Positions 6,264-58,617 of a DNA stretch of 64,000 nt are shown one piece after another. The notes below the pieces were generated by a model, which had not been told where the DNA came from, ran no database searches, and worked only from the letters and a program-made list of their open reading frames with translations. Numbering within the stretch: the stretch's first letter is position 1; every line of letters begins with the position of its first letter. The stretch is from an uncultured Burkholderiales bacterium (GTDB lineage Bacteria > Pseudomonadota > Gammaproteobacteria > Burkholderiales > Burkholderiaceae_C), in contig CAIRQX010000103.1 of the NCBI GenBank assembly GCA_903880855.1, positions 61,161-125,160 of the forward strand. The letters run 5' to 3'. Position numbers and translations under genes: made by a program.

Positions 6264-6270
6264 GCCGCTT

Positions 6271-9506: not shown

Positions 9507-9547
9507 CAAAATATTTTGTCGATCAATTAAAAATATAAAGATCAATC

Positions 9548-10207
9548 ATGTCTATCAAGTTTTACGGATTCTGGCGTTCGCTGGCCGCATACCGCGTTCG
9601 AGTTTCGCTCAAGCTCAAAGGGTTAGCCTATGAAGAAATTCCAGTTAATTTATTAGCAGGTGAGCAGCACGATTCCGCCTACTTGGCAATTAACCCTCAA
9701 GGCGCAGTGCCAGCACTCGTTATTGAGGGGCTTTCAAAACCCTTATTTCAATCCCTTGCAATTTTGGATTATTTGGAATATGCCCACCCAATCCCGTCAC
9801 TAATGCCTTCCCTGCCGGCGGATAGAGCAAGGGTGCTTGCGCTTGCGCACCTTTGTGCAAGTGATGGACATCCCCTAGTGGTTCCTCGTGTTAGAAACTA
9901 TCTACAAAATACTTTGAAATTAGAAGAAACGGCTCGAAACCAATGGCTACAGCATTGGACATTCGAAGCATTGAATGCCTATGAACGTGTTTTGACTCAA
10001 GACCCGCGTGGCGGAAGATTCAGTCATGGGGATCAAGTGTCAGTTGCTGATTTATGTCTTGCTTCCCAAGTTGTTGGAGCAGAATTATTTGGATGCGAAT
10101 TAGTCCGTATCCCACGCGTAATGGATATTTTCAAAGAACTCATGACTTTGCCTGCCTTCTCTGCTTCTATGCCGAAGCGACAGTCCGATGCGCCACAGCA
10201 AAATTAG
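9548..10207 (+). CDS. maiA: Zeta-class glutathione S-transferase / maleylacetoacetate (or maleylpyruvate) isomerase
   Basis: 219 aa. The N-terminus KFYGFWRSLAAYRVRVSLKLKGLAYEEIPVNLLAGEQ...INPQGAVPALV matches the GST-zeta/MaiA pattern. Confidence 0.7.
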   Translation: MSIKFYGFWRSLAAYRVRVSLKLKGLAYEEIPVNLLAGEQHDSAYLAINPQGAVPALVIEGLSKPLFQSLAILDYLEYAHPIPSLMPSLPADRARVLALAHLCASDGHPLVVPRVRNYLQNTLKLEETARNQWLQHWTFEALNAYERVLTQDPRGGRFSHGDQVSVADLCLASQVVGAELFGCELVRIPRVMDIFKELMTLPAFSASMPKRQSDAPQQN

Positions 10208-10280
10208 TTCAACTAGTTTGCGTACTTAACCAAAACACAGAATTAATCTTTATTTTCAACAAACCTTAGGAGATATTTCA

Positions 10281-11405
10281 ATGATTTTTACTTGTGCCCC
10301 TACCTGCAAACACCCATACCACCAACACGGAAAAACGACCAAAGGTGCCGCTGGTATGTTCACGTCGCTAGCCACTAAAAAATTAGCCAAGCGTAAAGAC
10401 GGCCATTTGAATATCGACGTCCATTGCCATTACTTCAATCCGGCTGTTGGGCAAAAAGCATCAGTTCTCAAACCTATTGAGCAAGAGGTTGGCCATATTT
10501 TTGCCAACCAGTTAACGCGCGATACCAATGCCAAACAAATGCGTGACAGAGCGCCCATGTTGTCAGACGTTGCTGTTCGCCTGAAAGATATGGACCGTAT
10601 GGGCGTGGATATTCAAGCTGTCTCACCCGCGCCATTCCAGTATTACTACTTCGCTGAGCCTGCTTTTGGCGCCGAGTTAGCGCGTGATGTGAATGAGGGC
10701 ATGGCCAAACTGGTGGCCCAACATCCTGACCGTTTGATTGGCTTAGGCACTGTGCCTTTGCAGGACGCTGGTTTAGCCGTCAAAGAACTCAAGCACGCAG
10801 TCAAGAATTTAGGTTTGAAAGGTATTGAGATCAATACACACGTCAACGGCAAAAACCTGACCGATCCATCGCTCAAATTAGAAAAATTCTTTGCTGCCGT
10901 GAGTGAGTTGGGCGTTCCTTTGTTCATTCATCCCAATGGATTCACCGAAGCCAGTCGTCTCGAAAACCATTATTTCAATAACGTGATTGGTAATCCCTTG
11001 GACACCACCATCGCTGTGAGCCATTTGATTTTTGATGGTGTCATGGAGCGCAACCCTAAACTGAAAGTGTTGTTGGCACATGCTGGTGGCTATCTGGCAC
11101 ATTATTGGGCGCGTATGGACCATGTGTATGGCGCGCGTCCTGATGGTCGTTCCGTCATCAAGCGTAAGCCTTCTACCTACCTTGAGCGCTTTTATTTCGA
11201 CACCATCACATTCGACCCAGGCATGCTTCGCAACATGATTGAGCGTTTTGGTGCTGGCCATGTGATGTTGGGAACTGACTATCCCTACGATATGGCAGAG
11301 GTGGATCCATTAGGTCTTGTATCTGCTGTCAAGCGTTTGAACAAAGACGACAGAGACTTGATCACTGGTGGAAACGCTAAAAAACTGTTCAAGATCAAAT
11401 CTTAA
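10281..11405 (+). CDS. Amidohydrolase-2 (ACMSD-type metal-dependent decarboxylase/hydrolase) family protein
   Basis: 374 aa. HxH metal motif IDVHCHYF and C-terminal LGTDYPYD. AGGAGA Shine-Dalgarno before the ATG at 10281; alternative ATG at 10356. Confidence 0.75.
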   Translation: MIFTCAPTCKHPYHQHGKTTKGAAGMFTSLATKKLAKRKDGHLNIDVHCHYFNPAVGQKASVLKPIEQEVGHIFANQLTRDTNAKQMRDRAPMLSDVAVRLKDMDRMGVDIQAVSPAPFQYYYFAEPAFGAELARDVNEGMAKLVAQHPDRLIGLGTVPLQDAGLAVKELKHAVKNLGLKGIEINTHVNGKNLTDPSLKLEKFFAAVSELGVPLFIHPNGFTEASRLENHYFNNVIGNPLDTTIAVSHLIFDGVMERNPKLKVLLAHAGGYLAHYWARMDHVYGARPDGRSVIKRKPSTYLERFYFDTITFDPGMLRNMIERFGAGHVMLGTDYPYDMAEVDPLGLVSAVKRLNKDDRDLITGGNAKKLFKIKS

Positions 11406-44289: not shown

Positions 44290-45120
44290 ATGCTGATGCA
44301 CCCTCAATTTGACCCTGTCGCCCTCCAACTAGGGCCTGTTTCTATCCATTGGTATGGCATCACTTATTTAGTAGCTTTTGGCCTGTTTCTGTTACTGGCT
44401 AAGCGAAGGTTGCAAGATGCGCCTTACGCTGACTGGGTGGCTCAAGGGAAGTGGGCCGTTCAAGATGTTGACGACTTGCTGACTTATGGCGTAATGGGTG
44501 TGGTGCTGGGTGGGCGCGTTGGTTATTGCCTGTTCTACAAACTGGGTTACTACGCCGAACATCCGCTCGAAGTGTTTTATGTCTGGCAAGGCGGAATGAG
44601 CTTTCATGGTGGCATGCTGGGAGTGATTGCGGCGATGGCCTTGTTTGCTTGGCAGCGCAAACGCGCTTGGTTGGCGGTAACCGATTTCATTGCGCCCTGT
44701 GTACCTACCGGGTTGGCTGCTGGTCGGGTTGGAAATTTCATTAATGGCGAGTTATGGGGCAGGGCGGCAGACCCTGATTTACCTTGGGCGATGGTGTTTC
44801 CACAAAGTGGTTCACTCTTGGCGCGACATCCTTCTCAGGTCTACCAATTTTTGGGCGAAGGCTTGTTGTTGTTTTTCGTGATGTGGTTGTATGCCAGAAA
44901 GCAAAGGCCAGTGGGAGCCGTTTCAGGGGTGTTTTTGATGGGCTATGGCACGATGCGTTTTGTAGCTGAATACTTTCGTGAGCCTGATGCACATTTGGGT
45001 TTTTTGGCTTTGGGCTTGAGCATGGGGCAGTGGTTGTGCGTTCCCATGGTGGCGTTAGGTGCTTGGATGTGGTTAAAGTTTGTGTTACAAAATGGTGAAA
45101 CACCCAGTACACACGAATGA
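44290..45120 (+). CDS. lgt: Prolipoprotein diacylglyceryl transferase
   Basis: The [30 protein letters not shown] start is typical of Lgt. Alternative ATGs lie at 44281 and 44296. The track ORF start at 44119 overlaps the ilvD start region. Confidence 0.9.
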
Positions 45121-46553
45121 ACGCAACCAATTGGCTAAGTAGTAAATTAAATTTGTTGCGTAACTCTGCGCCGGCAAGCGTTCCTCCAGAAGAAGTAACC
45201 CGCTCTACGCGTGAACGTTTGGGCGCAACACTGCGAGTTCATAAAGAGGCTCTGTCCCCCCGTTCATTGCGCCGTACGCTTTTGCTGTTGCAGTCTGTGG
45301 TTGATCCCAAAGTCAGCGAAGTCGAAGGCGGGCGCCGTGCCAAAGCCTTGGCTGATTGGTACGCCAAGGCTGAGACCAGTGAACGGCAAGATTTGTGGTT
45401 GTTGATCAGCGAACAATTTGGTCCCGACCCCCTGAAAGTGCGTGCGGCCAGGGTCGAATATGACGCCTCCTTAGGTAGCGTAGACGAGGGCGCTGCAGAA
45501 ATTCGCTTAAGGCGTGCATTGGTCTCTCCCCGCACCCGTTTGCTGCAACGTTTTGCCGCCTATCCTGGCGGCATGCGGTTTTTGGTGGACTTGCGCGCCG
45601 AGATGCTGCAGCAAATCAAGGGCAATAAGCGTTTGCTGGCGCTAGATGCTGAGTTAGAGAACTTGTTCTCCACTTGGTTTGACGTGGCCTTTTTGGAGTT
45701 ACGCACTATCAGTTGGGACTCTCCCGCTTCCTTGATCGAAAAGCTCATCAAATATGAAGCTGTGCACGATATTCGCAGTTGGGCAGATCTCAAGAACCGA
45801 CTTGACAGCGACCGCCGCTGCTACGGGTTTTTCCACCCCAATTTACCCAATGAGCCATTGATATTTGTGGAAGTTGCGTTGCTCGACGAAATGGCCGACA
45901 ACATCATGCCCTTGTTAGACGAGACCGCTGCCAATTCGGATTTGCACAAAGCCTCGGTTGCTATTTTTTATTCCATCAGCACGACACAAACTGGCTTGCG
46001 GGGCGTCAGCTTTGGTGACTCACTGATTAAGCGGGTGGTTGAAACGCTACGCTCTGAATTCCCTAAGCTCAAAACTTTCGCTACTCTCTCGCCTATTCCT
46101 GGATTTAGAACCTGGTTGGCTAAAAACTTAGAGCTAATGCTCGAGAAGCTATCAGATAAGGAGCTCTCTCAATTAGGACGCGCCTTGAGTTTTGAGCCAC
46201 CGTCGTCCATTCATGTACTTGCAGCCTTGGAGCAACCTGAGACCTTGGCGGGTCTTTCTGTCAAATCGCCACTGCGTGAATTTTTAACCCGGTGCGCAGC
46301 CGAATATTTGGGGCGTGCCAAAGAGGGCGATATGGTCTTAGACCCCGTAGCCCGTTTCCATTTAGGCAACGGCGCGCGGATTGAGCGTATTAATTTCTTC
46401 GCAGACCCATCACCCAAAGGTATCAGACAATCACACGGCTTGATGGTCAATTATTTGTATGACCTTAAGCGCATTGATAAACATCGAAAGCAGTTAGAGT
46501 CAGGCGAGGCGCCTGCTTCTAGCCAAGTGGAAGATTTGTATTTCAGTAACTGA
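45117..46553 (+). CDS. matA: Malonyl-CoA decarboxylase
   Basis: 478 aa. MCD-family pattern ([18 protein letters not shown]..., [10 protein letters not shown]). ATGA overlap with the lgt stop. Confidence 0.8.
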
Positions 46554-46590
46554 TTTACATGACCATAAATTCAAAAAAGGAGACACAACT

Positions 46591-47583
46591 ATGAATAAGA
46601 CTTTTACAAATACCCGCCGCCAATGGCTTGGGCTTTCCGCTGCAGCGCTTGCCACTTTTGCGCTGGAAGTTTATGCAGAACCAGGCTGGCCCAACAAACC
46701 CGTCAACTTGATCGTGCCTTTTCCAGCCGGTGGAGGCACGGATACCTTTGGCAGACCCTTCTCCGCGCAGTTTTCAAAACTTACTGGTAAATCACTGGTG
46801 ATCGATAACCGTGGCGGCGCTGGAGGCAACTTAGGCGCTGGCGTTGCTGCTAAAGCCGCGCCCGACGGTTATACCTTGTTTATGGGCGCGGTGCACCACT
46901 CCATTGCGCCGTCCATGTACCCCAAACTTGACTACGACTTAGAGCGTGACTTCATACCTTTAGCGATCGTTGCCAGCGTGCCGCACGTTTTAGTCGTCAA
47001 CCCTAAAAATATGCCTGTTGCTGACTTCAAGGCATTTCTGGAGGAAGTGAAATCCAAGCCTGGTCGTTTTAACTACGGATCTGCAGGCGGCGGCACATCG
47101 CACCATTTAGCGGGTGAGCTTTTCAAAATGCAAACCAAAACATTTATTACCCATATTCCCTATCGTGGAGCTGGTCCGGCATTGCAAGACTTGATTGCTG
47201 GAAATGTAGACATGATGTTCGATGGACTCGGTTCATCTGCCCAACATATCAAAGGCGGACGCATCAAAGCATTGATGGTGTCTGGTAATAAGCGAAATCC
47301 AGCTTTTCCAGATATTCCTTGCGCTGCAGAATTTGGTTTGCCTGATTACAACGTTACAACTTGGTATGGCCTATGGGCTCCTAAAGGAACCCCCGCAGAT
47401 GTACAAGCCCGCGTTATTGAAGAAGTGCGTAAAGCCGCTGCCACCGATGACATAAAAACCAGTTGGTCTAATAGTGGCGCTGAGTTTCCCAACTTAACCG
47501 GCCCGCAGTTTGGTTCTTTTGTAAATAGTGAAATCAAAAAATGGGCAGGTGTTGTCAAAGCCTCAGGTGCCAAGTTAGATTAA
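46591..47583 (+). CDS. Bug family tripartite tricarboxylate transporter substrate-binding protein (TctC-like)
   Basis: 330 aa. Signal peptide, then VPFPAGGGTDTFGRPF...IDNRGGAGG...IPYRGAGPA. Confidence 0.85.
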   Translation: MNKTFTNTRRQWLGLSAAALATFALEVYAEPGWPNKPVNLIVPFPAGGGTDTFGRPFSAQFSKLTGKSLVIDNRGGAGGNLGAGVAAKAAPDGYTLFMGAVHHSIAPSMYPKLDYDLERDFIPLAIVASVPHVLVVNPKNMPVADFKAFLEEVKSKPGRFNYGSAGGGTSHHLAGELFKMQTKTFITHIPYRGAGPALQDLIAGNVDMMFDGLGSSAQHIKGGRIKALMVSGNKRNPAFPDIPCAAEFGLPDYNVTTWYGLWAPKGTPADVQARVIEEVRKAAATDDIKTSWSNSGAEFPNLTGPQFGSFVNSEIKKWAGVVKASGAKLD

Positions 47584-47607
47584 AAGTTAGATTTTTAGCG
47601 TGAGACG

Positions 47608-49143
47608 ATGAACCACAACCTGTATGCAGCGCTACGCGCCCAATTCCCCAGCAATTTAGACACCACCGCCGTTGAAACCGATGATGGCTTGCATTACAGC
47701 TGGCGCGACTTAGAGCGCGCCAGTGCGATGTTGGCTAATTTGCTGGAAGGATTGAATATTCCTCAGGGTGCACGCGTTGCAGTTCAGGTGGAGAAGTCGG
47801 TCGAAGCCATGATGCTTTACCTCGCCACATTGCGGGCAGGTTATGTTTTCTTGCCACTCAATACAGCCTATCAAAGTGCAGAAATTCAATACTTTATAGA
47901 AAACGCGGAGCCTGCAGTCGTGGTGTGTAGCGGCCCCAACTTTGGCTGGGTCAGCAAAATCGCCTTTAAGGCAGGGACGCAATACGTTTTCACCTTGAAC
48001 GACAACAGAACCGGTAGCTTGTTAGACCGTGCTGTGCATTGTTCAGACAAACACTCAGTAATTGAAAACGCTGCAGACGACATGGCCGCCATTTTGTACA
48101 CCAGCGGTACAACCGGACGCAGCAAAGGCGCTATGTTGTCACATGGCAATTTGCTTAGCAACGCCCAAACCCTAAAAACCTACTGGGGCTGGCGCGTTGG
48201 CGATGTGTTGATCCACGCTTTGCCAATCTTCCATGTGCATGGATTATTCGTGGCTATACACGGTGCTTTACTCAACGGCAGCAAGATGATTTGGATGACA
48301 AAGTTTGACCCCAAGTTCGTTATCCAAAAAATGCCAGAAGCCACGGTGTTTATGGGCGTACCCACTTTGTATGTGCGCATGTTGGCTGAAACAACGCTAA
48401 CAAAACAACAAGCTTCGCACATGCGTTTGTTTGTTGCGGGCTCTGCACCATTGCTCATAGAAACATTCAAAGAATGGCAAGACCGAACAGGCCACACCAT
48501 CTTGGAGCGCTACGGCATGAGCGAAACCGTCATGCTCACATCCAACCCGTATGCGGCAGATGCGCGTTACTCAGGTCAAAGCGAAAGACGAGGCGGAACT
48601 GTTGGATTTCCTTTGCCTAGCGTGCAGTTGCGCGTGCACAGCGATGACGGAGTGGAATTACCCCTTGGTGAAATTGGGGGCATCCAAGTTAAAGGCCCGA
48701 ATGTTTTTTCCGGTTACTGGCGTATGCCTGAGAAAACAAAAGAAGAATTCACGGCAGATGGTTTCTTCAAAACCGGTGATGTCGGCAAGATCGATGAGCG
48801 CGGTTATGTTGTGATTGTTGGTCGTAGCAAAGACTTGATCATCAGCGGTGGGTACAACGTGTATCCAGCTGAAATTGAGGGCTATATAAATGACATTCCT
48901 GGCGTTGCAGAAAGCGCGTTGGTGGGTGTTCCGCATCCGGATTTTGGGGAAGTGGGTGTGGCAGTGGTAATTACTAAGCCTGGGGCCGCGGTTTCTGGAG
49001 ACGCTGTTATTGCTGCTTTGAAGTCGCAGTTGGCTAACTTTAAGATTCCTAAGAAGTGTTTTGTTGTGGACGCTTTACCTCGGAACACTATGGGCAAGGT
49101 TCAGAAGAACTTATTGCGTGATCAATATAAGTTGCTTTTCTGA
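47608..49143 (+). CDS. matB: Malonyl-CoA synthetase (malonate--CoA ligase), AMP-binding family
   Basis: 511 aa. AMP-binding motifs YTSGTTGRSKG, ...GYWRMPEKT... and GDVGKIDERGY. Sits in a locus with malonyl-CoA decarboxylase. Confidence 0.8.
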   Translation: MNHNLYAALRAQFPSNLDTTAVETDDGLHYSWRDLERASAMLANLLEGLNIPQGARVAVQVEKSVEAMMLYLATLRAGYVFLPLNTAYQSAEIQYFIENAEPAVVVCSGPNFGWVSKIAFKAGTQYVFTLNDNRTGSLLDRAVHCSDKHSVIENAADDMAAILYTSGTTGRSKGAMLSHGNLLSNAQTLKTYWGWRVGDVLIHALPIFHVHGLFVAIHGALLNGSKMIWMTKFDPKFVIQKMPEATVFMGVPTLYVRMLAETTLTKQQASHMRLFVAGSAPLLIETFKEWQDRTGHTILERYGMSETVMLTSNPYAADARYSGQSERRGGTVGFPLPSVQLRVHSDDGVELPLGEIGGIQVKGPNVFSGYWRMPEKTKEEFTADGFFKTGDVGKIDERGYVVIVGRSKDLIISGGYNVYPAEIEGYINDIPGVAESALVGVPHPDFGEVGVAVVITKPGAAVSGDAVIAALKSQLANFKIPKKCFVVDALPRNTMGKVQKNLLRDQYKLLF

Positions 49144-49175
49144 TTACTCGGGTTCGCAGAATTTTCTCTCGCTCC

Positions 49176-49259
49176 GCCAAGCCGATCAGCCAGTACTTGC
49201 TGTGGCTCCGAGCTTCGCTCTTTATGGAGCCACATCAAGCACTGACTACTCGTCTTGGC
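49176..49259. repeat. Imperfect 34-nt-arm palindromic element with a 16-nt centre
   Basis: The arms 49176-49209 and 49226-49259 are complementary at 28 of 34 positions (hand alignment). The 23-nt core 49204-49226 recurs inverted at 49378-49400. Confidence 0.7.
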
Positions 49260-49274
49260 TACGAGTAATTTTTT
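49247..49274 (+). terminator. Rho-independent terminator of the malonyl-CoA synthetase gene
   Basis: Stem TACTCGT/ACGAGTA (7 bp), loop CTTGGCT, then ATTTTTT. Confidence 0.6.
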
Positions 49275-49346
49275 AGGCTACAGTGAATTCGGATGCCTTG
49301 TGAATGCAGGTGGTCTTAGAAAAAACAAGCTTTTCAAACTCAAAAA

Positions 49347-49426
49347 GAGAGCGAGCTAAGGGGGACTAATGCGGGGACATAAAGAGCGAAGCTCGGAGCC
49401 GCATTAGTCCCCCTTAGCTCGCTCTC
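49347..49426 (-). terminator. Perfect 28-bp-stem hairpin, probable terminator of cphA
   Basis: GAGAGCGAGCTAAGGGGGACTAATGCGG (49347-49374) and its exact reverse complement (49399-49426) flank a 24-nt loop. On the minus strand a T-rich tract follows (TTTTTGAGTTTGAAAAGCTTGTTTTTTC). Confidence 0.55.
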
Positions 49427-49488
49427 GCGCAACGAGAAAAGAACAACTCAAGCGCAACGAGAAAGCAACACAGAGGGAGCAAAAAAAA

Positions 49489-52062
49489 CTAACTAGCCGC
49501 CTCAACCCGCTGCGTAATATGCGCCAAAGCCTCTTCCACCTGGTCAATCAAAATCAAGCAAAGATCCCCTTGATTCAGGCGCTCCATAGCCTTGTCAATC
49601 GCCAAAAACTCGCCATAAATCTCATCCACTTGACGCGTACGCTTGGCACCCTCTAAACCTTGACGCAGAAGTTTGAGCACTTCGCCATCCACTCGCCCCC
49701 GTTGGCAGGCATCTTGGTAGAGCACAACTTCGTCGAATGCGTCACCAATGATGCGGGTTTGCTCACGAATATCGTCATCGCGTCTATCGCCAGCACCGCT
49801 GATCACCACGCTACGTCGTTGTGCAGGAAGATTGGTGACAGCTTGCACCAATGCTTTGATGGCATCAGGGTTGTGCCCGTAGTCGGCAATGACTGTGGCG
49901 CCTTTGTAGTCAAACACATTGAAACGACCCGGAACACCTTGGATGTCACTGACAAATGTTGCGAGTCCTTTGCAGATGGTTTCCCATGGGATATTGATAG
50001 CCCAAGCGGCACCGATAGAAGCCATCGCGTTCTCTATTTGAAAGGCAATGGCACCGCTCCGTGTGACTGGAACCTCAGTCAGAGGAATACGAACCGAGTG
50101 TTGCCCTTGCATGGCAACAATATGGTCGTCTTCGACAAACAGCACGCGTTTACCTTGTGCGCGATGTGTTGCGATGATGGGATGGTGGGTATCTAGACCA
50201 AAGAAAATGACTTCGCCTGGGCAATTGACCGCCATGCGCGCAACTAAGGGGTCGGTGGCATTGAGAACTGCAGTTCCGGAAGTAGCAACATTTTGTACGA
50301 TGACGCGTTTGAGGACTGCTAAATCCTCTACGGTCGATATGTAGTTCAAACCTAGGTGGTCACCCATGCCGATATTGGTAACCACTGCAACATGGCAACG
50401 GTCAAATGCCAAGCCTTCTCGTAACATTCCGCCACGTGCGGTCTCTAGCACTGCTGCGTCGACGTCTGGGTGCATCAATACGTTACGCGCGCTTCGGGGG
50501 CCACTGCAGTCGCCGCTGTCAGTTTGTCGACCGTTCACGTACACACCATCTGTGTTGGTCATGCCTACGCGCAGCCCATGTGTGCGTAATAAGTGGGAGG
50601 TGAGACGAACGGTGGTTGTCTTTCCATTGGTGCCAGTTACCGCAATGACTGGCACGCGACCATCTTCGCCGTTGGGGAACATCGTGGCAATAACGGCTTC
50701 GCCAACATCACGACCTTTTCCAAATGAGGGGCTCAGATGCATACGCAAGCCTGGGGCAGCGTTGACTTCCACCACGCCACCGCTTTGTTCTTCAAGGGGA
50801 TGCAATACCGATTCGCAAACTACGTCGACGCCACAAATATCAAGTCCCACCATTTGGGCTGCGGCAATGGCGCGCGCAGCGACTTCTAGATGCACATCGT
50901 CAGTCACATCGGTCGCGGTACCGCCTGTGGACAGGTTAGCGTTATTGCGCAAAATGACACGCGTGCCTTTGACGGGAACTGAGTTTTCATCTAAACCTTG
51001 TTCTTTGAGTCGGTTTTTAGCGATGTCATCCAATTGAATTTTGGTGAGTGATGTGGCATGTCCTTCGCCACGGCGTGGGTCTGCGTTGACTTGTTCCACC
51101 AATTCACGCACGGTATTTTTTCCGTTACCAATGACCAACGGAGGATCACGTCTTGCTGCGGCTACCAATTTATTACCTACTACTAACAAGCGGAAATCGC
51201 TGCCAGGTAGATAGCGCTCAACCAATACGTCGTCTCTAAATGAGATGGCAGTGTTGTAAGCACCCATCACGCCTTCTTTGGTCGCGATGTTGACGCTAAT
51301 GCCTTTTCCTTGATTGCCATCACGTGGTTTGATCACGACAGGTAAGCCTATTTCCTGCGCCGCCGCCCATGCATCTTCTGCGCTAGTGACAGGGCGGCCT
51401 AGTGGTACGGGAACGCCAGCTGCATGCAAGAGTTTTTTGGTGAGTTCTTTGTCTTGGGCGATCGATTCAGCGATGGCGCTGGTGGCATCAATTTCAGCAG
51501 CTTGGATGCGGCGTTGTTTGCTACCCCAACCCAATTGCACCAATGAGCCCTCCGTCAATCGGCGGAAGGGAATGCCACGGGCAATGGCAGCGTTGACGAT
51601 GGACCCAGTGGATGGACCAAGGCGTAAGTCTTCGTCTAAGCCACGCAGTTGATCGATAGCAGATTCGACATCAAATTCGCTATGTTGGGCTGCGGCAGAG
51701 CACAAGTCTCTGGCTAGCTTGATAGCGAGGCAGCCGACTTCTTCCTCGGTGTATTCCACAGCGACTTGGTACAAACCCTTTTCATCGGTGGCGGTGGTGC
51801 GACTGAACGTTACGGGACATCCTGCTTGAATTTGCAAATGCAAGGTAGTAGCTTCAATCGCATGTGCCATGCTCAAGGGTGCTTTGCGGTCGGTTGGACT
51901 AAGTTGTCCTAAGCCGGGGAACAAGTGACGCAAGTATGTTTCAAAATCAGCATGGGTACTAAGATCTAGTTCATCGCCGTCGCAACGCACCAATGCCTCT
52001 ATGGCAGTGTGGCGTGTCCAGAGATTAGGGCCGCGCAATGCGCGAATACGTGAGACTTCCAT
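49489..52062 (-). CDS. cphA: Cyanophycin synthetase
   Basis: 857 aa. N-terminal RALRGPNLW, an ATP-grasp region (VVIKPRDGNQGKGISVNI, NLSTGGTATDVTDD) and a Mur-ligase-type domain with the intact P-loop VTGTNGKTTT. Confidence 0.9.
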   Translation of the reverse strand: MEVSRIRALRGPNLWTRHTAIEALVRCDGDELDLSTHADFETYLRHLFPGLGQLSPTDRKAPLSMAHAIEATTLHLQIQAGCPVTFSRTTATDEKGLYQVAVEYTEEEVGCLAIKLARDLCSAAAQHSEFDVESAIDQLRGLDEDLRLGPSTGSIVNAAIARGIPFRRLTEGSLVQLGWGSKQRRIQAAEIDATSAIAESIAQDKELTKKLLHAAGVPVPLGRPVTSAEDAWAAAQEIGLPVVIKPRDGNQGKGISVNIATKEGVMGAYNTAISFRDDVLVERYLPGSDFRLLVVGNKLVAAARRDPPLVIGNGKNTVRELVEQVNADPRRGEGHATSLTKIQLDDIAKNRLKEQGLDENSVPVKGTRVILRNNANLSTGGTATDVTDDVHLEVAARAIAAAQMVGLDICGVDVVCESVLHPLEEQSGGVVEVNAAPGLRMHLSPSFGKGRDVGEAVIATMFPNGEDGRVPVIAVTGTNGKTTTVRLTSHLLRTHGLRVGMTNTDGVYVNGRQTDSGDCSGPRSARNVLMHPDVDAAVLETARGGMLREGLAFDRCHVAVVTNIGMGDHLGLNYISTVEDLAVLKRVIVQNVATSGTAVLNATDPLVARMAVNCPGEVIFFGLDTHHPIIATHRAQGKRVLFVEDDHIVAMQGQHSVRIPLTEVPVTRSGAIAFQIENAMASIGAAWAINIPWETICKGLATFVSDIQGVPGRFNVFDYKGATVIADYGHNPDAIKALVQAVTNLPAQRRSVVISGAGDRRDDDIREQTRIIGDAFDEVVLYQDACQRGRVDGEVLKLLRQGLEGAKRTRQVDEIYGEFLAIDKAMERLNQGDLCLILIDQVEEALAHITQRVEAAS

Positions 52063-54305
52063 TACCCATTCATCCTTGCCAAGTCTTTACTGACTTGTTC
52101 GTTTTTTTGTCCAAAATTCTTTAATCCAGCGCGAATCAGCAAGGGGGTGATACCAAGAGACCAGCCAGTTGCGACTGCCGCTAATAAAGTATTGATGTGC
52201 AAGCCTTGTTTAAGCAGTCGCGCAATGAGATCCATATCTAGATGGAATAGAGGGGTTTCTTGATCGCCGCGCGCTAAGGTCACAAAACCTTCTTGGCAAA
52301 ACACCGCACGGCCGCCTTGTTGCCGGTGCACAGTCAGGTGGGCATTGCTTGCATCTTGTGCATAAAACAATACTTCGCCATCACTGAGTTCTGCTAACCC
52401 CACGACTGCGTCATCTTGCGCGTTCAATACTGCAGCACCTTCAGGCAATACCAAATCAATTTGGGTACGAATCACAGTGCGCATTTGGTCAGGCGTTTGG
52501 ATATCGTGGTCATCTATCAATATTTGAGTGGTCTCAGGCATATTGGTCACCACTCCCACTTGGCATCTGTCATAGGCCAAGCCTTCATTCAAGATGTGCA
52601 GCGGCGTAGTTTCAAACACGGCGGCGTCAAGTGCGCGGTTGATCAACAGTCGTTCACCATCTTCAAAACCCCGTGCATCGTTTTTCCCCAAATGGTGTTG
52701 GTTCATATACAAACCATCTTTGCAGGCTAGACCTGTACGGTGTCCTGAGAGATGCAGCAACCACGCAACGAGTTGTGCGAGCTCGGTGGTTTGTTCAGTG
52801 CCCACAATACCAACAACAGGGATACGGCCCGAATCATTCGATCCAAACAAATGGTCGACGATCGCTTTACCAACAGGACGCGGTTGACCCACTGCAGGTT
52901 TGACATGCATGAGCAGACCAGGACCGGCATTGACTTCGATCACAGCACCACGTGTTTCATCCAATGGACGGCTGATATCTTCTGTCACGATGTCAATGCC
53001 TGCGATGTCTAAACCAATCACGCGAGCTGCTAGGGTGGCTGCTGCCGCTACTTCAGGATGAACTTTGTCGGTCACATCGACATTGAGGTTGCCATTGCGT
53101 TGCACGATCACTGAGCGGTCTTTATCTACAACGCTATGGGGTTCCAGTCCTTGGCGTTGAATTTCTAAAAGAGTCATCTCCCCACGTGATGAGTTGGAGA
53201 ATTTAATGACGTCCAATGGAAAGGTTTCAGATTCGCCGCGACGAGGGTCAGTGTTGATTTGAGATTCAATCAATTGCTCTACTGTTGACACACCGTCGCC
53301 AACTACAAAAGCGGTCTCACCTTGGGTGGCAGCGACAACCCGGTCTCCGACCACCAATACGCGGTGCTCTTCTCCCTTGACATAACGCTCGATCAACACA
53401 GGTACGTTCTCGTCAGATCCAGACCAGCCAGCGCCTACAGTGTTGGCGGCTAACCAAGCAGCACGCACGGCCGATTCAGTTTCGACATTTAAAGATACGC
53501 CGCGGCCACGGTTACCGTCTGCAGGTTTGATCGCCACTGGCAAACCAATATCTTGAGATGCTTCCCAAGCTTGGTCAGCGCTCGTCACAATCTGCCCCTC
53601 TGGCACTGGAATGCCGCATTGGGTGAGCAAGCGTTTGGTGAGGTCTTTGTCGCTAGAAATGCTCTCAGCAATCGCACTGGTGCGATCGGTTTCCGCTGTC
53701 CAAATACGGCGTTGGCGTGAACCATAGCCAAGTTGCACCAAATTACCCTCTGTCAAACGAATAAAAGGTGTTTTGCGCTCCATCGCAGCGTCAACAATAC
53801 ACGCAGTACTCGGGCCTAAGCACAAAACATCGACGATGGCTTTGAGTTCCTCGACTGTGGTTGCAATATCAAAAGACAGATTATTTGCAGCCGACATCAC
53901 CAAACGGTGGGCTGCTTTGAAACTAGCGCGTCCTAGGGTTTCGTGTTCGGTACGAAATACCACTTTGTAGACACCGCGCTTGCTGATCTCGCGGGCTTTG
54001 CCAAACTCGGCGCGCGCGCCTGCAAGTAATTGCAACTCAATAGAGACATGTTCAATGATGTGTCCCATCCAAGTGCCACCCACCAAGCGGGTCAGAAACC
54101 CGCCACGATGACCCACACCGCAGTGGTGTTCGACCAAGCCAGGCAACCAAGCATTGACGCGATCGTTAAAGCCTTCAATTGAATTGGATGGGTGATCTTC
54201 CATCTCACCTAAATCAATCAAGGCCTCGATGATGGGGCGATAAGTCCAAATATTGGGGCCGCGCAAATAATTGACGCGCAGGATCTGAATGTCTTGAAAG
54301 GCCAT
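52062..54305 (-). CDS. Cyanophycin synthetase paralog (CphA'), with degenerate catalytic signatures
   Basis: About 747 aa from MAFQDIQILRVNYLRGPNIW (ATG at 54305; track ORF start 54368). Collinear with CphA, but the P-loop reads VGTEQTTE and the STGGTA segment is absent. Its stop overlaps the cphA start (TAATG). Confidence 0.8.
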   Translation of the reverse strand: MAFQDIQILRVNYLRGPNIWTYRPIIEALIDLGEMEDHPSNSIEGFNDRVNAWLPGLVEHHCGVGHRGGFLTRLVGGTWMGHIIEHVSIELQLLAGARAEFGKAREISKRGVYKVVFRTEHETLGRASFKAAHRLVMSAANNLSFDIATTVEELKAIVDVLCLGPSTACIVDAAMERKTPFIRLTEGNLVQLGYGSRQRRIWTAETDRTSAIAESISSDKDLTKRLLTQCGIPVPEGQIVTSADQAWEASQDIGLPVAIKPADGNRGRGVSLNVETESAVRAAWLAANTVGAGWSGSDENVPVLIERYVKGEEHRVLVVGDRVVAATQGETAFVVGDGVSTVEQLIESQINTDPRRGESETFPLDVIKFSNSSRGEMTLLEIQRQGLEPHSVVDKDRSVIVQRNGNLNVDVTDKVHPEVAAAATLAARVIGLDIAGIDIVTEDISRPLDETRGAVIEVNAGPGLLMHVKPAVGQPRPVGKAIVDHLFGSNDSGRIPVVGIVGTEQTTELAQLVAWLLHLSGHRTGLACKDGLYMNQHHLGKNDARGFEDGERLLINRALDAAVFETTPLHILNEGLAYDRCQVGVVTNMPETTQILIDDHDIQTPDQMRTVIRTQIDLVLPEGAAVLNAQDDAVVGLAELSDGEVLFYAQDASNAHLTVHRQQGGRAVFCQEGFVTLARGDQETPLFHLDMDLIARLLKQGLHINTLLAAVATGWSLGITPLLIRAGLKNFGQKNEQVSKDLARMNG

Positions 54306-54486
54306 AGATAAGGGGTTAGGGATGCTGAATGCTTCAGCAAATGCGTTGCAAACGGGGTATAGCCGCACAATAGCGGGCGATACAATTAAAAAAATACGAT
54401 GTTGCGTGCAACAAGTTCAGGCTCCTGCTTCTTGTTCACCGACCTTAGTTTGGTATCAAACGATTTAGGCCGGAAAATTTATAAGA

Positions 54487-56781
54487 ATGAATGCATCTCT
54501 TTCGGCTTATGCCAACTTTATGTTGCCTTCTGAGTGGAAGGCTTCAGCGTCGGCGCAACTCTCACCCCAAGAGAACGTCTTAGCTTGGTTGGAAGTTGAC
54601 TTAGACGCGCAATTGCAGTTCGCCAAAGGACTGCTAATTGTGACAGACCAACGCATTCTTTCGGCAAATCCTGCCGCTGCTGGGCTTGTATGGCAGAGTT
54701 GGACGCTACAGTCTGGTTGGGTCATGGACCATTTTGATTACGCTGGCGTAGGCACACTGTCTTTGCGCAGCAGTGATCAGCAACTCGCTACTTGGCGCTT
54801 TACCCTGAACCACAATGTCTTTGCAATGCGCTTGCAAGAGGCCTTTGCTGCACGGGTGGAGTTCATTACTCACGGACGCGCGCTCCAAACCAATCTGACA
54901 GCACGATGCCCGCAATGCAAATTGCCTTTGGAAGTGGAGGGTGATGAATGCCCTGTTTGTAATCGTGAGCAGCATGCACCGCTGTCAACTTGGGGCTTAT
55001 TTCGCTTGTGGCGCTTTGCGCATCCCTATCGTTGGCGATTATTGGCTGGGTTTTTATTGACGCTGGCCTCGACTGCAGCCACCTTGGTGCCTCCTTACTT
55101 GACCATGCCGCTGATGGACGATGTGCTGATTCCATTCCAAAACGGCCAAGATATTGACCACGACCTTGTTGCTTTGTACTTAGGCGGCTTACTCGCGGCA
55201 GCAGCATTGGCTTGGAGCTTGGGTTGGGCTAAAACCTATATCTTGGCCTTGGTCTCTGAGCGCATTGGCGCTGATTTACGCACCACAGCCTATGAGCACT
55301 TGATGCGTTTGTCGTTGGAATATTTTGGTGGCCGTCGTACGGGCGACTTGATGAATCGCATTGGCGCTGAGACAGACCGTATCAATGTCTTTTTGTCATT
55401 GCACCTGCTTGATTTCGCGACAGACATCTTGATGATTTTGATGACAGCGGCTATTTTGTTGAGCATCGATGTTCGTTTGGCCGCTGCCACTTTGTTGCCT
55501 CTTCCGTTCATTATTTGGCTTATTCATGTAGTGCGCGACAAACTAAGAACAGGCTTTGAGAAGATTGACCGAGTATGGTCCGAGTTAACCAATGTGTTGG
55601 CAGACACCATTCCAGGCATTCGCGTTGTCAAGGCCTTCGCGCAAGAACGTCGTGAGGCCAACCGGTTTCGCGATGCCAATAAACATAACTTGGCGGTGAA
55701 CGACCGCATCAATTTTGTTTGGTCTTTGTTTTCGCCCACCGTCACCTTGATGACGGAAGTGGGTTTGTTGGTGGTGTGGGGTTTTGGCATTTGGTTGGTG
55801 TCTCACCATCAAATTACTGTGGGTGTGCTGACGGCATTCTTGGCGTACATCGGACGGTTTTACACGCGTCTAGATTCCATGAGTCGCATCGTGTCGCATA
55901 CCCAAAAGGCGGCTGCGGGCGCCAAACGTATTTTTGAAATCTTGGACCATGTCTCTAGCGTGCCAGAGGCTACACACCCACAAAAACTTCCGAGTCCCTT
56001 AGAAGGTCGCATCGATATCCAAGATGTCGGCTTTAGGTATGGAAACCGCGCTGTTATTCGCGGTTTGAATTTAGCCATTCAACCCGGCGAGATGATTGGC
56101 TTGGTCGGACAAAGTGGTTCAGGCAAAAGCACCTTGGTGAATTTGATTTGTCGTTTCTACGACATCAGCGAAGGTGCTATCAAAGTTGATGGCATCGATA
56201 TCCGCAATATTGCTCTGTCAGATTTCCGTAGCCATATCGGCTTGGTACTGCAAGAGCCTTTCCTGTTCTTTGGCACCATTGCCGACAACATTGCGTACGG
56301 TAAACCCAACGCTAGCCGACAAGACATAGTTGCTTCAGCACGTGCAGCGCACGCGCATGAATTTATTTTGCGACTTCCCCAAGGCTATGACTCTTTGGTA
56401 GGGGAGCGCGGACAGGGCCTCTCCGGTGGCGAGCGCCAACGCATTTCTATTGCGCGCGCCTTGCTCATCAATCCGCGTATTTTGATTTTGGATGAGGCCA
56501 CTGCCTCGGTAGATACCGAGACCGAGCAAGAAATTCAAAAAGCACTGGATAACTTGGTGCAAGGTAGAACCACCATTGCAATTGCACATCGTTTGTCAAC
56601 ACTGCACAAAGCAGACCGCTTGGTCGTCTTGGAGCAGGGTGAGTTAGTCGAAGAGGGCAACCACGACACCCTGATGGCAAAGCAGGGCGCGTATTGGCGT
56701 TTGTATGAGGCGCAAGCTAAAAATGCAGAAGCCGACCGCGTGAAGTTGGGTGAAGTCTCTCGCAAAGAGGACATCGTATGA
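54487..56781 (+). CDS. ABC exporter (fused TMD-NBD) with an N-terminal cytoplasmic domain ending in a zinc ribbon; cyanophycin-locus associated
   Basis: 764 aa. About 165 aa of N-terminal extension with CPQCKLPLEVEGDECPVC, then six hydrophobic helices. Walker A GQSGSGKST, signature LSGGERQR, Walker B ILILDEATS. Confidence 0.85.
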   Translation: MNASLSAYANFMLPSEWKASASAQLSPQENVLAWLEVDLDAQLQFAKGLLIVTDQRILSANPAAAGLVWQSWTLQSGWVMDHFDYAGVGTLSLRSSDQQLATWRFTLNHNVFAMRLQEAFAARVEFITHGRALQTNLTARCPQCKLPLEVEGDECPVCNREQHAPLSTWGLFRLWRFAHPYRWRLLAGFLLTLASTAATLVPPYLTMPLMDDVLIPFQNGQDIDHDLVALYLGGLLAAAALAWSLGWAKTYILALVSERIGADLRTTAYEHLMRLSLEYFGGRRTGDLMNRIGAETDRINVFLSLHLLDFATDILMILMTAAILLSIDVRLAAATLLPLPFIIWLIHVVRDKLRTGFEKIDRVWSELTNVLADTIPGIRVVKAFAQERREANRFRDANKHNLAVNDRINFVWSLFSPTVTLMTEVGLLVVWGFGIWLVSHHQITVGVLTAFLAYIGRFYTRLDSMSRIVSHTQKAAAGAKRIFEILDHVSSVPEATHPQKLPSPLEGRIDIQDVGFRYGNRAVIRGLNLAIQPGEMIGLVGQSGSGKSTLVNLICRFYDISEGAIKVDGIDIRNIALSDFRSHIGLVLQEPFLFFGTIADNIAYGKPNASRQDIVASARAAHAHEFILRLPQGYDSLVGERGQGLSGGERQRISIARALLINPRILILDEATASVDTETEQEIQKALDNLVQGRTTIAIAHRLSTLHKADRLVVLEQGELVEEGNHDTLMAKQGAYWRLYEAQAKNAEADRVKLGEVSRKEDIV

Positions 56782-57245
56782 GCGATGCATTTTCTTTAAG
56801 CTTTAATGCATTGGGGCAACTTGCAGTACGTTTAGCGGACGGCACGTTACATGAAGGTGCAGTTGCTGTGCGAGCTTTCCCTATTGCTGACCCAGATCAC
56901 AGTATTTCTATTTTGAGTGCAGAAGGTAAAGAGTTGGTATGGATAGATGACCTTGCAACTGTTAGCGACGTTGATAGACAAGTCATTGAACGCGCCTTAC
57001 AAATGCGCGAATTCATGCCGGAGATTTTGCGACTAGATGGCGTGAATAGTTTTTCTACGCCAAGCACCTGGCGCGTTCAAACTAATCGCGGGCCGACTGA
57101 GTTTGTTCTCAAGGGCGAAGAAGACATCAAACGACTTAGCACCAATACCTTGATCGTGGCGGATGCGCATGGCGTACAGTTTTTGATCCGCGATTTGCCT
57201 TCGCTTGATAGGCACACAAGAAAGTTATTAGATCGATTTTTGTAA
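56778..57245 (+). CDS. DUF1854 family protein (cyanophycin-locus associated)
   Basis: 155 aa. ATGA overlap with the ABC gene. The family assignment comes from my memory of the DUF1854/ABC pairing next to cphA genes and has not been searched. Confidence 0.55.
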   Translation: MSDAFSLSFNALGQLAVRLADGTLHEGAVAVRAFPIADPDHSISILSAEGKELVWIDDLATVSDVDRQVIERALQMREFMPEILRLDGVNSFSTPSTWRVQTNRGPTEFVLKGEEDIKRLSTNTLIVADAHGVQFLIRDLPSLDRHTRKLLDRFL

Positions 57246-57252
57246 TCTTGCG

Positions 57253-58617
57253 CTAAGTCGGCCAAGTGCTTCCGTGCTCTGGCACCAAGGCCCGCCAACC
57301 TAATTTGTGTTCGATCTTCTGACGTAGTGCATCCGAAGCCTCTGGCTCACCATGCACCACATACACCTGTGAAGGCAGCTCTTTCATGCTTTGCAACCAA
57401 TCGATCAATTGCGATGCGTCCGCATGCGCAGAGGACGATTGCAGTTGCACCACTTCGGCCTCGATTTGAATATCTTTGCTGTGGATGCGTACTACGCCTG
57501 AACCGCTTGCTAAGGTGGCACCACGCGTTCCAGGTGCTTGGTAGCCGGTCAATACCACCATATTGCGGTGGTCTGGCAGGTAATGTGCCAAATGGTGCAA
57601 TACCCGTCCGCCAGTGGCCATGCCGCTCGCTGCCAATATCACCATAGGGCCATGCCGGCTTGCGAGTTTTTTAGATTGGTCGGTGTTCTCTACCATCGTG
57701 GCAACATTTCCTAAATCGCGAATGCCTTGCGCATCCAAGCGATGCGCGTGGGGATGTTTTTTATACAACTCGGTGGTGTGCACAGCCATGGGACTGTCTA
57801 GAAAAACGGGTAGCCCATGCGGTATATCTCCGCGCTCTTTCAAGATTGAAATGGCGTAAAGAATAGCCTGTGCACGCCCGACTGCAAAGACAGGAATCAC
57901 TGCAACGCCGCCTCGTGCAGATACTTTTTTCAATGCGAGGCCTAGTTCTGCAATCACGTTTTCTTCAGGGTGTTCACGATTGCCGTAAGTGGATTCAATC
58001 AACACAGTATCGGCTTGTGGTGGTTTATCAGGGGGCAACATCAGCAAATCGTCAGGGCGGCCTAAATCGCCGCTAAACAAGATTCGCTTGCCTGCCACTT
58101 CCACCAAAACGCTAGATGCTCCCAGGATGTGTCCGGCAGATGAGAAGGTGACTTTCCAACCTGGAATAGGGCTAAAAGTATTCCCAAGGGCTTGGGGTTG
58201 CAACAAGTTAAGCGATTGGATTGCTTGGTGTTTGTCATAGAGGGGAAGTGCAGGTGCATGCTTGGTGTAACCATGGCGATTCACAAAGCCTGCGTCCTCT
58301 TCTTGAATATGCCCACTGTCTGGCAAAAGAATGGCGCACAAATCACACGTCGCTGGCGTAGCGTAGACCTTGCCGCGATACCCTTGCGCATAAAAAAGTG
58401 GTAAGTAGCCACTGTGGTCTAAATGTGCGTGGGTTAAGACAACGGCATTGATCTCTTTAGGCTCGAACGTGGGTGGATTCCAGTTACGCAGTCGCAGCTG
58501 TTTATAGCCCTGGAATAAGCCGCAATCGACCAATAATCTTTGGCCTTCGTGTTGCACCAAATATTTGGAGCCTGTGACGGTGCCAGTACCACCAAGAAAA
58601 GTAATTGTGACGCTCAT
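57253..58617 (-). CDS. MBL-fold metallo-hydrolase of the beta-CASP (RNA-metabolising) type
   Basis: 454 aa. THAHLDHSGYLP (HxHxDH) motif and a beta-CASP-like C-terminal half ending in ...VHGEPEA. Confidence 0.8.
   Translation of the reverse strand: MSVTITFLGGTGTVTGSKYLVQHEGQRLLVDCGLFQGYKQLRLRNWNPPTFEPKEINAVVLTHAHLDHSGYLPLFYAQGYRGKVYATPATCDLCAILLPDSGHIQEEDAGFVNRHGYTKHAPALPLYDKHQAIQSLNLLQPQALGNTFSPIPGWKVTFSSAGHILGASSVLVEVAGKRILFSGDLGRPDDLLMLPPDKPPQADTVLIESTYGNREHPEENVIAELGLALKKVSARGGVAVIPVFAVGRAQAILYAISILKERGDIPHGLPVFLDSPMAVHTTELYKKHPHAHRLDAQGIRDLGNVATMVENTDQSKKLASRHGPMVILAASGMATGGRVLHHLAHYLPDHRNMVVLTGYQAPGTRGATLASGSGVVRIHSKDIQIEAEVVQLQSSSAHADASQLIDWLQSMKELPSQVYVVHGEPEASDALRQKIEHKLGWRALVPEHGSTWPT

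Follow-up and report, generated by a model that had tools for sequence, protein, structure and literature searches.

The cphA'-cphA locus

We analyzed a stretch of 64,000 nucleotides (the window) from an uncultured Burkholderiales bacterium (assembly GCA_903880855.1, contig CAIRQX010000103.1, positions 61,161 to 125,160) and focused on two adjacent minus-strand genes, cphA' and cphA, which encode paralogs of cyanophycin synthetase 1 (CphA1). In CphA1, the G site (ATP-grasp domain) adds Asp and the M site (Mur-ligase-type domain) adds Arg. The N domain holds a third active site with a metallopeptidase-like Cx19HxxEH motif, an endo-cyanophycinase that makes primers and thereby gives primer independence (Sharon et al., 2022, PMC9262961). 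We write the state of each site as + or -, and the remodeled ATP-grasp site of CphA' as G*. The three tasks of that enzyme appear to be divided between CphA' and CphA. The tandem itself and the oddness of CphA' are already known, and the window holds an ordinary member of the cluster with the truncated form of CphA'. What appears to be new is to read the pair as one three-site enzyme split in two, each half having lost sites that the other keeps. The features of the pair are as follows.

52062..54305, minus strand: cphA', 747 amino acids, CphA1 paralog in the state N+ G* M-
53826..54305, minus strand: N domain of CphA', about residues 1-160, a full-length Pfam PF18921 match
54048..54122, minus strand: Cx19HxxEH motif of CphA', C62-x19-H82-I-I-E85-H86, corresponding to SuCphA1 C59/H79/E82/H83
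52824..53825, minus strand: G* (ATP-grasp) domain of CphA', about residues 161-494, from alignments and residue mapping
52065..52823, minus strand: vestigial Mcore of CphA' (about residues 495-730) and a short tail; Mlid absent
52785-52802, minus strand: P-loop remnant GTEQTT of CphA', residues 502-507
52060..52064, minus strand: TAATG junction, in which the TAA of cphA' shares one base with the ATG of cphA
49489..52062, minus strand: cphA, 857 amino acids, complete cyanophycin synthetase 1 in the state N- G+ M+

The mechanical open reading frame of cphA' covers 52062..54368 with a GTG start, and the ATG at 54305 is backed by the orthologs (733-747 amino acids). The plus strand reads cattA at 52060-52064, which gives TAATG on the coding strand. 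An earlier annotation of the stretch (the initial annotation) had described this overlap as translational coupling. The overlap exists in the window but is not general, as a 1-nucleotide overlap was found in only 9 of the 77 related loci and the remainder have gaps of 3-278 nucleotides. Strict coupling was therefore rejected as a defining feature. A promoter and terminator scan of 49100-54600 gave nothing above the shuffled expectation and no terminator between cphA' and cphA.

CphA' is 39% identical to CphA over 735 residues (BLASTP, E = 7e-156). It scores under the TIGR02068 equivalog cut-off (702.3 vs 850 bits) and over the NF010623 subfamily cut-off (958 vs 877), and CphA is over the TIGR02068 cut-off (982 vs 850 bits). 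The fold of CphA' is predicted to be preserved. Its AlphaFold model (pLDDT 88, pTM 0.84) has a TMq of 0.83-0.85 to SuCphA1 and TeCphA1 (0.84 to the primer-independent SuCphA1), and of 0.60-0.66 to CphA2 structures.

The N-domain motif is kept in CphA' and lost in CphA

In alignments to SuCphA1 (PDB 7LG5) and its E82Q mutant (7TXV), the motif of CphA' falls on positions 62, 82, 85 and 86 with the spacing of 19. The H57 and R70 equivalents, read straight from the sequence, are H60 and R73. In CphA the site is lost: there is no Cys59, nine residues are deleted, MAHAIEA stands where GHIxEH is expected, and the second His is gone. The Pfam N-domain model matches CphA' with 125.7 bits over model positions 4-113, and CphA with 43.5 bits over positions 52-113, the second half only. 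The CphA N domain aligns as that of the primer-dependent TmCphA1 (7LGN) does. The initial annotation had suggested a non-catalytic or partially catalytic subunit; the description 'non-catalytic' is not supported, as this intact site had been overlooked.

We scanned one genome per species and obtained a reference set of 80 loci, nearly all from Burkholderiales-type betaproteobacteria (genera include Limnohabitans, Rhodoferax, Acidovorax, Variovorax, Massilia, Cupriavidus, Ralstonia, Bordetella, Achromobacter, Methylotenera and Sideroxydans), in which 77 partner CphAs could be scored. The Cys-His-Glu-His (CHEH) tetrad is intact in CphA' of 80/80 loci, and the partner CphAs have Cys59 in 0/77 and His83 in 1/77. 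In 59 further metagenomic pairs, an N+ CphA' accompanies an N- CphA without exception. Among the CphA' orthologs, twelve residues are invariant that vary in CphA, and they cluster at the metal site (E59, C62, G65, G68, G69, F70, R73, G77, T78, H86, E90, and R105).

The M site of CphA' is dead and its ATP-grasp site is remodeled

The initial annotation stated that CphA' has lost the signatures of both catalytic domains. This is right for the M domain and only half right for the G domain, where the ATP/Mg/acyl-phosphate residues are kept. Alignment to CphA and to SuCphA1 (7LG5), with mapping onto published structure-function work, bore out the residue losses in both domains. In the M domain, GTNGKT has become GTEQTT relative to both CphA and 7LG5, so that Lys499 (Su/TeCphA1 numbering) is now Thr. 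The change of ETARGG to ETTPLH is seen in the alignment to CphA, and GMGDHLG aligns with MPETTQ, which puts TQ at D585/H586. The P-loop is not one residue shorter as had been claimed, since both quoted strings are 23 residues long and align without a gap. A further loss had gone unmentioned: CphA' stops at about CphA residue 730, so the whole Mur_ligase_C (Mlid) domain is missing. Pfam detects the N-terminal cyanophycin-synthase domain and the ATP-grasp domain in CphA' and no Mur-ligase domain (neither Mur_ligase_M nor Mur_ligase_C), and all four domains in CphA.

In structure-function work on TeCphA1 and SuCphA1, K499A impairs CphA1 and the D585/H586 double mutant is the M- construct (PMC9427784, PMC9262961). 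The M site of CphA' is dead because Lys499 and D585/H586 are lost and Mlid is absent, and the protein cannot add Arg. To judge from the ortholog sequences, its P-loop drifts freely, with 60 distinct hexamers among the 80 orthologs and Lys in only 14. The partner CphAs have GTNGKT in 74/77.

The ATP-grasp deletion described in the initial annotation is real. Five residues (STGGT) are gone from the G-omega large loop in comparison with both CphA and 7LG5, and another ATP-grasp block, VAIKPADGNRGRG, is retained as had been stated. With the residue roles established in CphA1 (PMC9427784), CphA' keeps the ATP/Mg/acyl-phosphate residues K261, R309, D431, E450, N452, and G456, which are invariant in the 80 orthologs. 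The elements of aspartate recognition are lost: R323 is replaced by G329 and R458 by L465, and S396-I400 are deleted after N407, with N394 kept. This G* state (K261, R309, D431, E450, and N452 kept, R323G, R458L with His in one ortholog, and the loop deletion) is found in 80/80 CphA' proteins. The G site of the partner CphA is canonical in 76/76 scorable proteins, one more being truncated by the contig end. The loss pattern of CphA' is not due to chance, because the same states recur in all 80 orthologs examined. CphA' almost certainly cannot add Asp. With a dead M site and a dismantled aspartate pocket, it cannot be a second ordinary synthetase, in agreement with the initial annotation.

His267 of the ATP-grasp P-loop was reported to be critical in TeCphA1 and SuCphA1 (PMC9427784). 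The window CphA' has R266 at this position (~53508-53510); Arg is confined to this lineage, the window protein and its closest relatives, with 7/80 orthologs (loci L001-L004, L006, L010, and L026), and His is present in 73. Since all partner CphAs and many canonical CphA1s have Gln here, and CphA' has Arg or His, position 267 is a weaker diagnostic than published work suggests.

In CphA1 and CphA2, the subunits of the oligomer meet through Gcore and Mcore (PMC9427784, PMC10273328). The SuCphA1 tetramer residue W672, read off the alignments, is conserved in neither paralog and bears on assembly neither way.

Selection and domain-wise constraint

cphA' is under strong purifying selection. Compared with a relative of ~95% identity (L149), the ratio of non-synonymous to synonymous substitution rates (dN/dS) comes to 0.023 in cphA' and 0.028 in cphA. 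For the N domain, the two proteins show opposite patterns of constraint. In the same comparison, the dN/dS of the N domain is 0.016 in CphA', its most constrained part, and 0.084 in CphA, its least constrained part. Against five relatives of ~71-82% identity, the N-domain dN is 0.11-0.15 in CphA' (the lowest of its domains) and 0.21-0.29 in CphA (the highest). The mean pairwise identities of the modules, calculated over 79 CphA' and 73 CphA orthologs, are given below.

N module: CphA' 0.64, CphA 0.61
Gcore (three segments): CphA' 0.70-0.78, CphA 0.75-0.82
Glid: CphA' 0.635, CphA 0.624
G-omega: CphA' 0.54, CphA 0.73
Mcore: CphA' 0.49, CphA 0.71

The CphA'/CphA ratios of these identities are 0.86-1.02 for Gcore and Glid, and constraint is relaxed in G-omega (0.74) and Mcore (0.68). 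The G domain of CphA' is therefore altered rather than decayed, as its core and lid are as conserved as those of the active paralog and only the three aspartate-binding elements are changed.

Neighborhood, distribution, and variants of the pair

Two genes diverge from cphA' on the other strand.

54487..56781, plus strand: 'cyanophycin metabolism-associated ABC transporter', 764 amino acids, fused permease/ATPase of exporter type
56778..57245, plus strand: 'cyanophycin metabolism-associated DUF1854 family protein', 155 amino acids; its first bases lie within the 3' end of the ABC gene

The transporter matches NF052233 with 1370 bits (cut-off 880), and the second protein matches PF08909 and NF052234 (209 bits vs a cut-off of 150). 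The layout, with the ABC and DUF1854 genes on one side and cphA' followed by cphA on the other, was found in every reference locus with a long enough contig and in most metagenome loci. The ABC gene adjoins cphA' in essentially all related loci that reach that far. cphA' precedes cphA on the same strand in 77/77 loci, and it occupies the same position in 80/80 reference-genome loci and 68/80 metagenomic loci, at identities down to 52%. The metagenome scan was targeted at a separate N- G* M- clade and yielded mostly the same betaproteobacterial pairs; it was used as replication.

The pair is also linked by function in published data. In transposon fitness experiments on Acidovorax 3H11 and Cupriavidus basilensis 4G11, the two synthetase genes are cofit with those of the ABC transporter and DUF1854 (Price et al., 2016, bioRxiv 10.1101/072470). 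Price et al. proposed the export of an amino-acid polymer. Accumulibacter expresses its two cphA copies evenly. The proposal of a co-expressed functional partner in the initial annotation is thus upheld by the position always directly upstream of cphA on the same strand, by the dN/dS of 0.02, and by the published cofitness.

Variants of the locus bear on the order of events. Full-length CphA' proteins (~870-900 amino acids) in the state N+ G* M+, with GTNGKT and DH, are present in six reference loci (L013, L015, L017, L029, L030, and L041; hosts Achromobacter, Cupriavidus, Ralstonia, and Bordetella) and in further loci (L081, L087, L091, L092, L094, L096, L097, and L136). Since these M-intact proteins carry the same G*, G* is older than the loss of M. 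The metagenome scan also returned single N+ G+ M+ cphA genes beside ABC/DUF1854 (L095, L107, L108, L115, L117, and L126). Such single-copy relatives next to the same genes, presumably in the ancestral state, fit a tandem duplication with later partition of the sites, which is the simplest history.

Other loci show different combinations. L104 encodes an 830-amino-acid CphA-like protein (5418-7910) with the N motif and M site intact and the ATP-grasp domain largely deleted or degenerate, directly followed by a complete N-less CphA (7911-10586). It may be a second, independent origin of an N site kept on a G-defective copy. L165 encodes a CphA'-like protein (P0131, 4794-6761) in which G-omega is deleted, the ATP/Mg ligands are lost, and CHEH is intact, followed by an N- CphA (6765-7634); this locus is not next to an ABC gene. 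P0131 was considered as a frameshift artifact within the 'N+ G? M-' class of 50%-identity representatives. This was rejected, as it is a single in-frame reading frame with a real internal deletion. L165 is a singleton contig, and the class, of which this one member was checked, was given little weight. L110 and L120 have a single N- G+ M+ cphA next to the ABC/DUF1854 genes and no CphA' partner.

The N- G* M- proteins form a large group apart from the clade of the window in a neighbor-joining tree of representatives, a rough tree that we used only for this separateness. One of them, P0139 (711 amino acids; L161-L164), lies beside ABC and DUF1854 genes, followed by a right-handed beta-helix protein, and no complete CphA is present on these contigs. 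One P0139 contig carries a hydrazine-synthase-alpha-like gene, which suggests an anammox-type planctomycete.

Beyond the cluster in the window, 57253-58617 (minus strand) encodes a metallo-beta-lactamase / beta-CASP / RMMBL ribonuclease-like protein of 454 amino acids. We take it as a generic beta-CASP nuclease because its best NCBIfam match, 'type VII CRISPR Cas14', reaches only 371 vs 800 bits. On the 3' side of cphA and on the opposite strand, 45117-49143 (plus strand) encodes a malonyl-CoA decarboxylase, a TctC-family solute receptor, and an AMP-binding (acyl-CoA synthetase-like) enzyme. These genes are probably a malonate or dicarboxylate utilization cluster without relation to cphA' and cphA.

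Comparison with known systems

Among the closest known systems is SuCphA1 from Synechocystis sp. UTEX2470 (PDB 7LG5, 7LGJ, 7TXV; PMC9262961), which shares the N-G-M fold with CphA' at 37% identity (TMq 0.83-0.84). The Cx19HxxEH motif is identical, and the H57/R70 equivalents and the ATP/Mg residues of the ATP-grasp domain are alike. Unlike SuCphA1, CphA' has no Lys499, D585/H586, Mlid, R323, R458, or half of the large loop. SuCphA1 has its three sites on one polypeptide, whereas in the window the polymerizing sites lie on a second protein, CphA.

SuCphA1 with inactivating G and/or M mutations (N+ G- M-), or its isolated N domain, supplied in trans makes the N-less TmCphA1 primer-independent, and E82Q abolishes this effect (PMC9262961). 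The engineered combination (PMC9262961, Fig. 2) has the same division of labor as the window pair. However, it is a two-species laboratory construct, whereas the window pair occurs naturally, is transcribed together, and is conserved throughout the sampled Burkholderiales-type betaproteobacteria, with G* remodeled instead of knocked out. Only for SuCphA1 has it been demonstrated that cyanophycin is cut into primers in a metal-dependent manner and that a primer-dependent synthetase can be rescued (PMC9262961). The primer-dependent CphA1s of Tatumella morbirosei (TmCphA1, 7LGN) and Acinetobacter baylyi (AbCphA1, 7LGM) are missing the motif, as is the window CphA and not CphA'. They were studied as solitary, primer-needing enzymes, whereas the window CphA has a dedicated N+ partner gene.

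CphA2 (PDB 7TA5, 8FXH; PMC10273328) is likewise a CphA1-derived paralog with a truncated, inactive M domain, which is retained for oligomerization (PMC10273328). However, CphA2 has no N-domain motif, is ~630-640 amino acids long and cyanobacterial, whereas CphA' has the motif, is 747 amino acids long and betaproteobacterial. CphA2 also keeps the full-length large loop (R389/N393/S395) and polymerizes beta-Asp-Arg, whereas CphA' has a shortened loop and replaced R323 and R458, and CphA2 is its more distant match (E = 1e-63 vs 6e-135). We considered CphA' as a CphA2-like dipeptide polymerase and rejected this on the N motif, the shortened loop, and the much weaker sequence and fold match.

The window pair is the known CphA/CphA' tandem of beta-proteobacteria, with cphA' upstream of cphA and the ABC and DUF1854 genes in the cluster. 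The window organism is a freshwater Comamonadaceae relative. The tandem was reportedly described by Krehenbrink et al. in 2002, Fueser and Steinbuechel in 2007, and Adames et al. in 2013, and it was also treated by Price et al. in 2016. These papers, the three older ones as known from secondary citations, either assigned no role to CphA' or put forward a polymer that is exported, and no cyanophycinase was reported in the tandem genomes. The genes of Ralstonia eutropha H16 (C. necator), studied by Adames et al. in 2013, are said by Price et al. and two reviews citing that work to have given no detectable cyanophycin. The H16-type CphA' is the full-length N+ G* M+ form, and that of the window is the truncated N+ G* M- form. 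We found no earlier statement of the N-site complementarity of the pair in literature searches on the motif, on DUF1854, on the bioinformatic survey of cyanophycin genes, and on ABC/Cupriavidus contexts, with the older tandem papers covered through secondary citations. A broad literature search for CphA/CphA' as a hetero-oligomer or pseudoenzyme returned nothing relevant.

A proposed split cyanophycin synthetase

The genes are complementary in their sites, under selection, co-located, and cofit in the published data. We think it fairly probable that cphA' and cphA together make up one cyanophycin synthetase 1 that has been split in nature, with the states N+ G* M- and N- G+ M+. With similarly modest confidence, and by analogy with SuCphA1, CphA' would supply the endo-cyanophycinase site, primer-generating or chain-processing, to a primer-dependent CphA. 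The experiments on SuCphA1 predict that the N site of CphA' is an active endo-cyanophycinase with such a priming or processing role. The 'primer binder' of the initial annotation came close, and the evidence points instead to a subunit that makes primers or cuts chains.

In this proposal, a three-site N+ G+ M+ enzyme would have been duplicated in tandem and then subfunctionalized. The downstream copy, CphA, would have kept the G and M sites and lost the metallopeptidase-like site of the N domain. The upstream copy, CphA', would have kept the N site and lost the M site wholly, along with the aspartate pocket of the G site. CphA would start chains very slowly, like the primer-dependent TmCphA1, and the N domain of CphA' would cut nascent (beta-Asp-Arg)n chains internally. 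Every cut would give a new C-terminus that CphA can extend. Because the cuts create extendable C-termini, synthesis would be self-priming and the chain length would be set by the CphA'/CphA ratio. The retained Gcore and Mcore of CphA' would probably serve assembly, and G* probably still binds ATP and the polymer end. L104 and L165 count in favor of this proposal, since the N site was kept there on a protein that had lost G outright and the partner is N-. The conserved four-gene layout with an ABC exporter and DUF1854 suggests export, and not storage, of the polymer or of fragments of it.

Several points weigh against the split-synthetase reading. The motif in CphA' is sequence evidence and in itself no proof of the predicted N-site activity. 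The 0/77 count reflects long maintenance and not many independent trials, because the N-site loss in CphA is one ancestral, clade-wide event. An N+ partner is not obligatory, as shown by the solitary N- synthetases TmCphA1, AbCphA1, L110, and L120. The primer model gives no reason why the ATP/Mg/acyl-phosphate residues and the mobile lid of G* are as conserved as in the active paralog. G* may have a function of its own, since the N- G* M- protein P0139 has the ABC/DUF1854 genes as neighbors but no complete CphA next to it. The pathway may also yield something other than classical cyanophycin, given that the C. necator genes reportedly gave none.

These last points lead to a different emphasis, which we consider unlikely, that G* is the main point and the N site secondary. 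CphA' would then be an active ATP-grasp ligase whose nucleophile pocket was rebuilt to take something else than free aspartate. This could be a dipeptide, an oligomer, or an amine of basic or neutral character; it could also be an acceptor with which the polymer is capped or anchored ahead of its export through ABC/DUF1854. The two arginines that grip the carboxylates of the incoming Asp are now Gly and Leu, and the combination of kept residues (E215, K261, H267, R309, D431, E450, and N452) with R323G, R458L, and the five-residue deletion is essentially invariant (80/80). Gcore and the mobile Glid match their CphA counterparts in conservation, and G-omega and Mcore are relaxed. The same G* in the M-intact full-length proteins of Cupriavidus, Ralstonia, Achromobacter, and Bordetella predates the loss of M and never reverted. 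The separate large group of N- G* M- proteins, one of them alone with ABC/DUF1854, and the reported failure to obtain classical cyanophycin from the C. necator genes fit as well. However, the sequence names no substrate, and G* is not simply CphA2-like, as the CphA2 large loop is full-length with R389/N393/S395. Conservation of the ATP residues could equally mean nucleotide-dependent folding or assembly. L165 lost G-omega and the ATP ligands and kept CHEH, and an N site that is invariant in CphA' and lost in CphA is left unexplained.

The reading of the initial annotation, an inert pseudoenzyme whose sole part in a CphA/CphA' hetero-oligomer is structural, regulatory, or polymer-tethering, is clearly improbable in our judgment. 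It agrees with the dead M site and missing Asp pocket, with the retention of the interface-forming Gcore and Mcore next to deletion of the mobile Mlid, and with adjacent genes that overlap in the lineage of the window. However, a scaffold would need neither an invariant Cys-His-Glu-His tetrad and its surroundings in 80/80 orthologs, in an N domain that is overall ~64% pairwise identical, nor a conserved mobile ATP lid, and it fits badly with an ATP-grasp core and lid as constrained as in the active paralog. An engineered N+ G- M- protein is also catalytically effective in trans (PMC9262961). A decaying duplicate or functionless pseudogene could account for the canonical motifs lost in two domains and for the truncated C-terminus, but it is effectively refuted by the open frame with a dN/dS of 0.023 over all domains, the position kept in 80/80 reference and 68/80 metagenomic loci, and the published knock-out phenotype cofit with cphA.

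The split synthetase and an active G* can also be combined. CphA' may be a subunit with two activities in an export pathway and not in storage, in which the N site cuts the CphA polymer and a remodeled, ATP-competent G* activates the new C-terminus and joins it to a non-aspartate acceptor, which could be another chain or serve as a cap or anchor. From there the product would pass to the ABC/DUF1854 exporter, and the cluster, present in all 80 related and mostly Burkholderiales reference genomes, would make a secreted or envelope-associated cyanophycin-like polymer. We offer the combination as a tentative possibility.

Implications

What CphA' does outside the cyanobacteria has been a question since the early 2000s, and the sole published attempt to obtain a polymer from such a pair reportedly failed, as told in secondary sources. 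The complementarity of the pair makes this role directly testable with existing assays. If the split-synthetase reading is true, the pair would be the first natural polymerase with the primer-making activity on a separate, dedicated subunit, and a clear example of subfunctionalization of a three-site enzyme. In heterologous hosts, cyanophycin yield is limited about two-fold by the availability of primers (PMC9262961). Separate genes would let cutting and polymerizing be tuned by the expression ratio, which the fused enzyme cannot do. The reading would also bear on the nitrogen polymer made and exported by freshwater and wastewater Burkholderiales such as Limnohabitans, Accumulibacter, and Rhodoferax.

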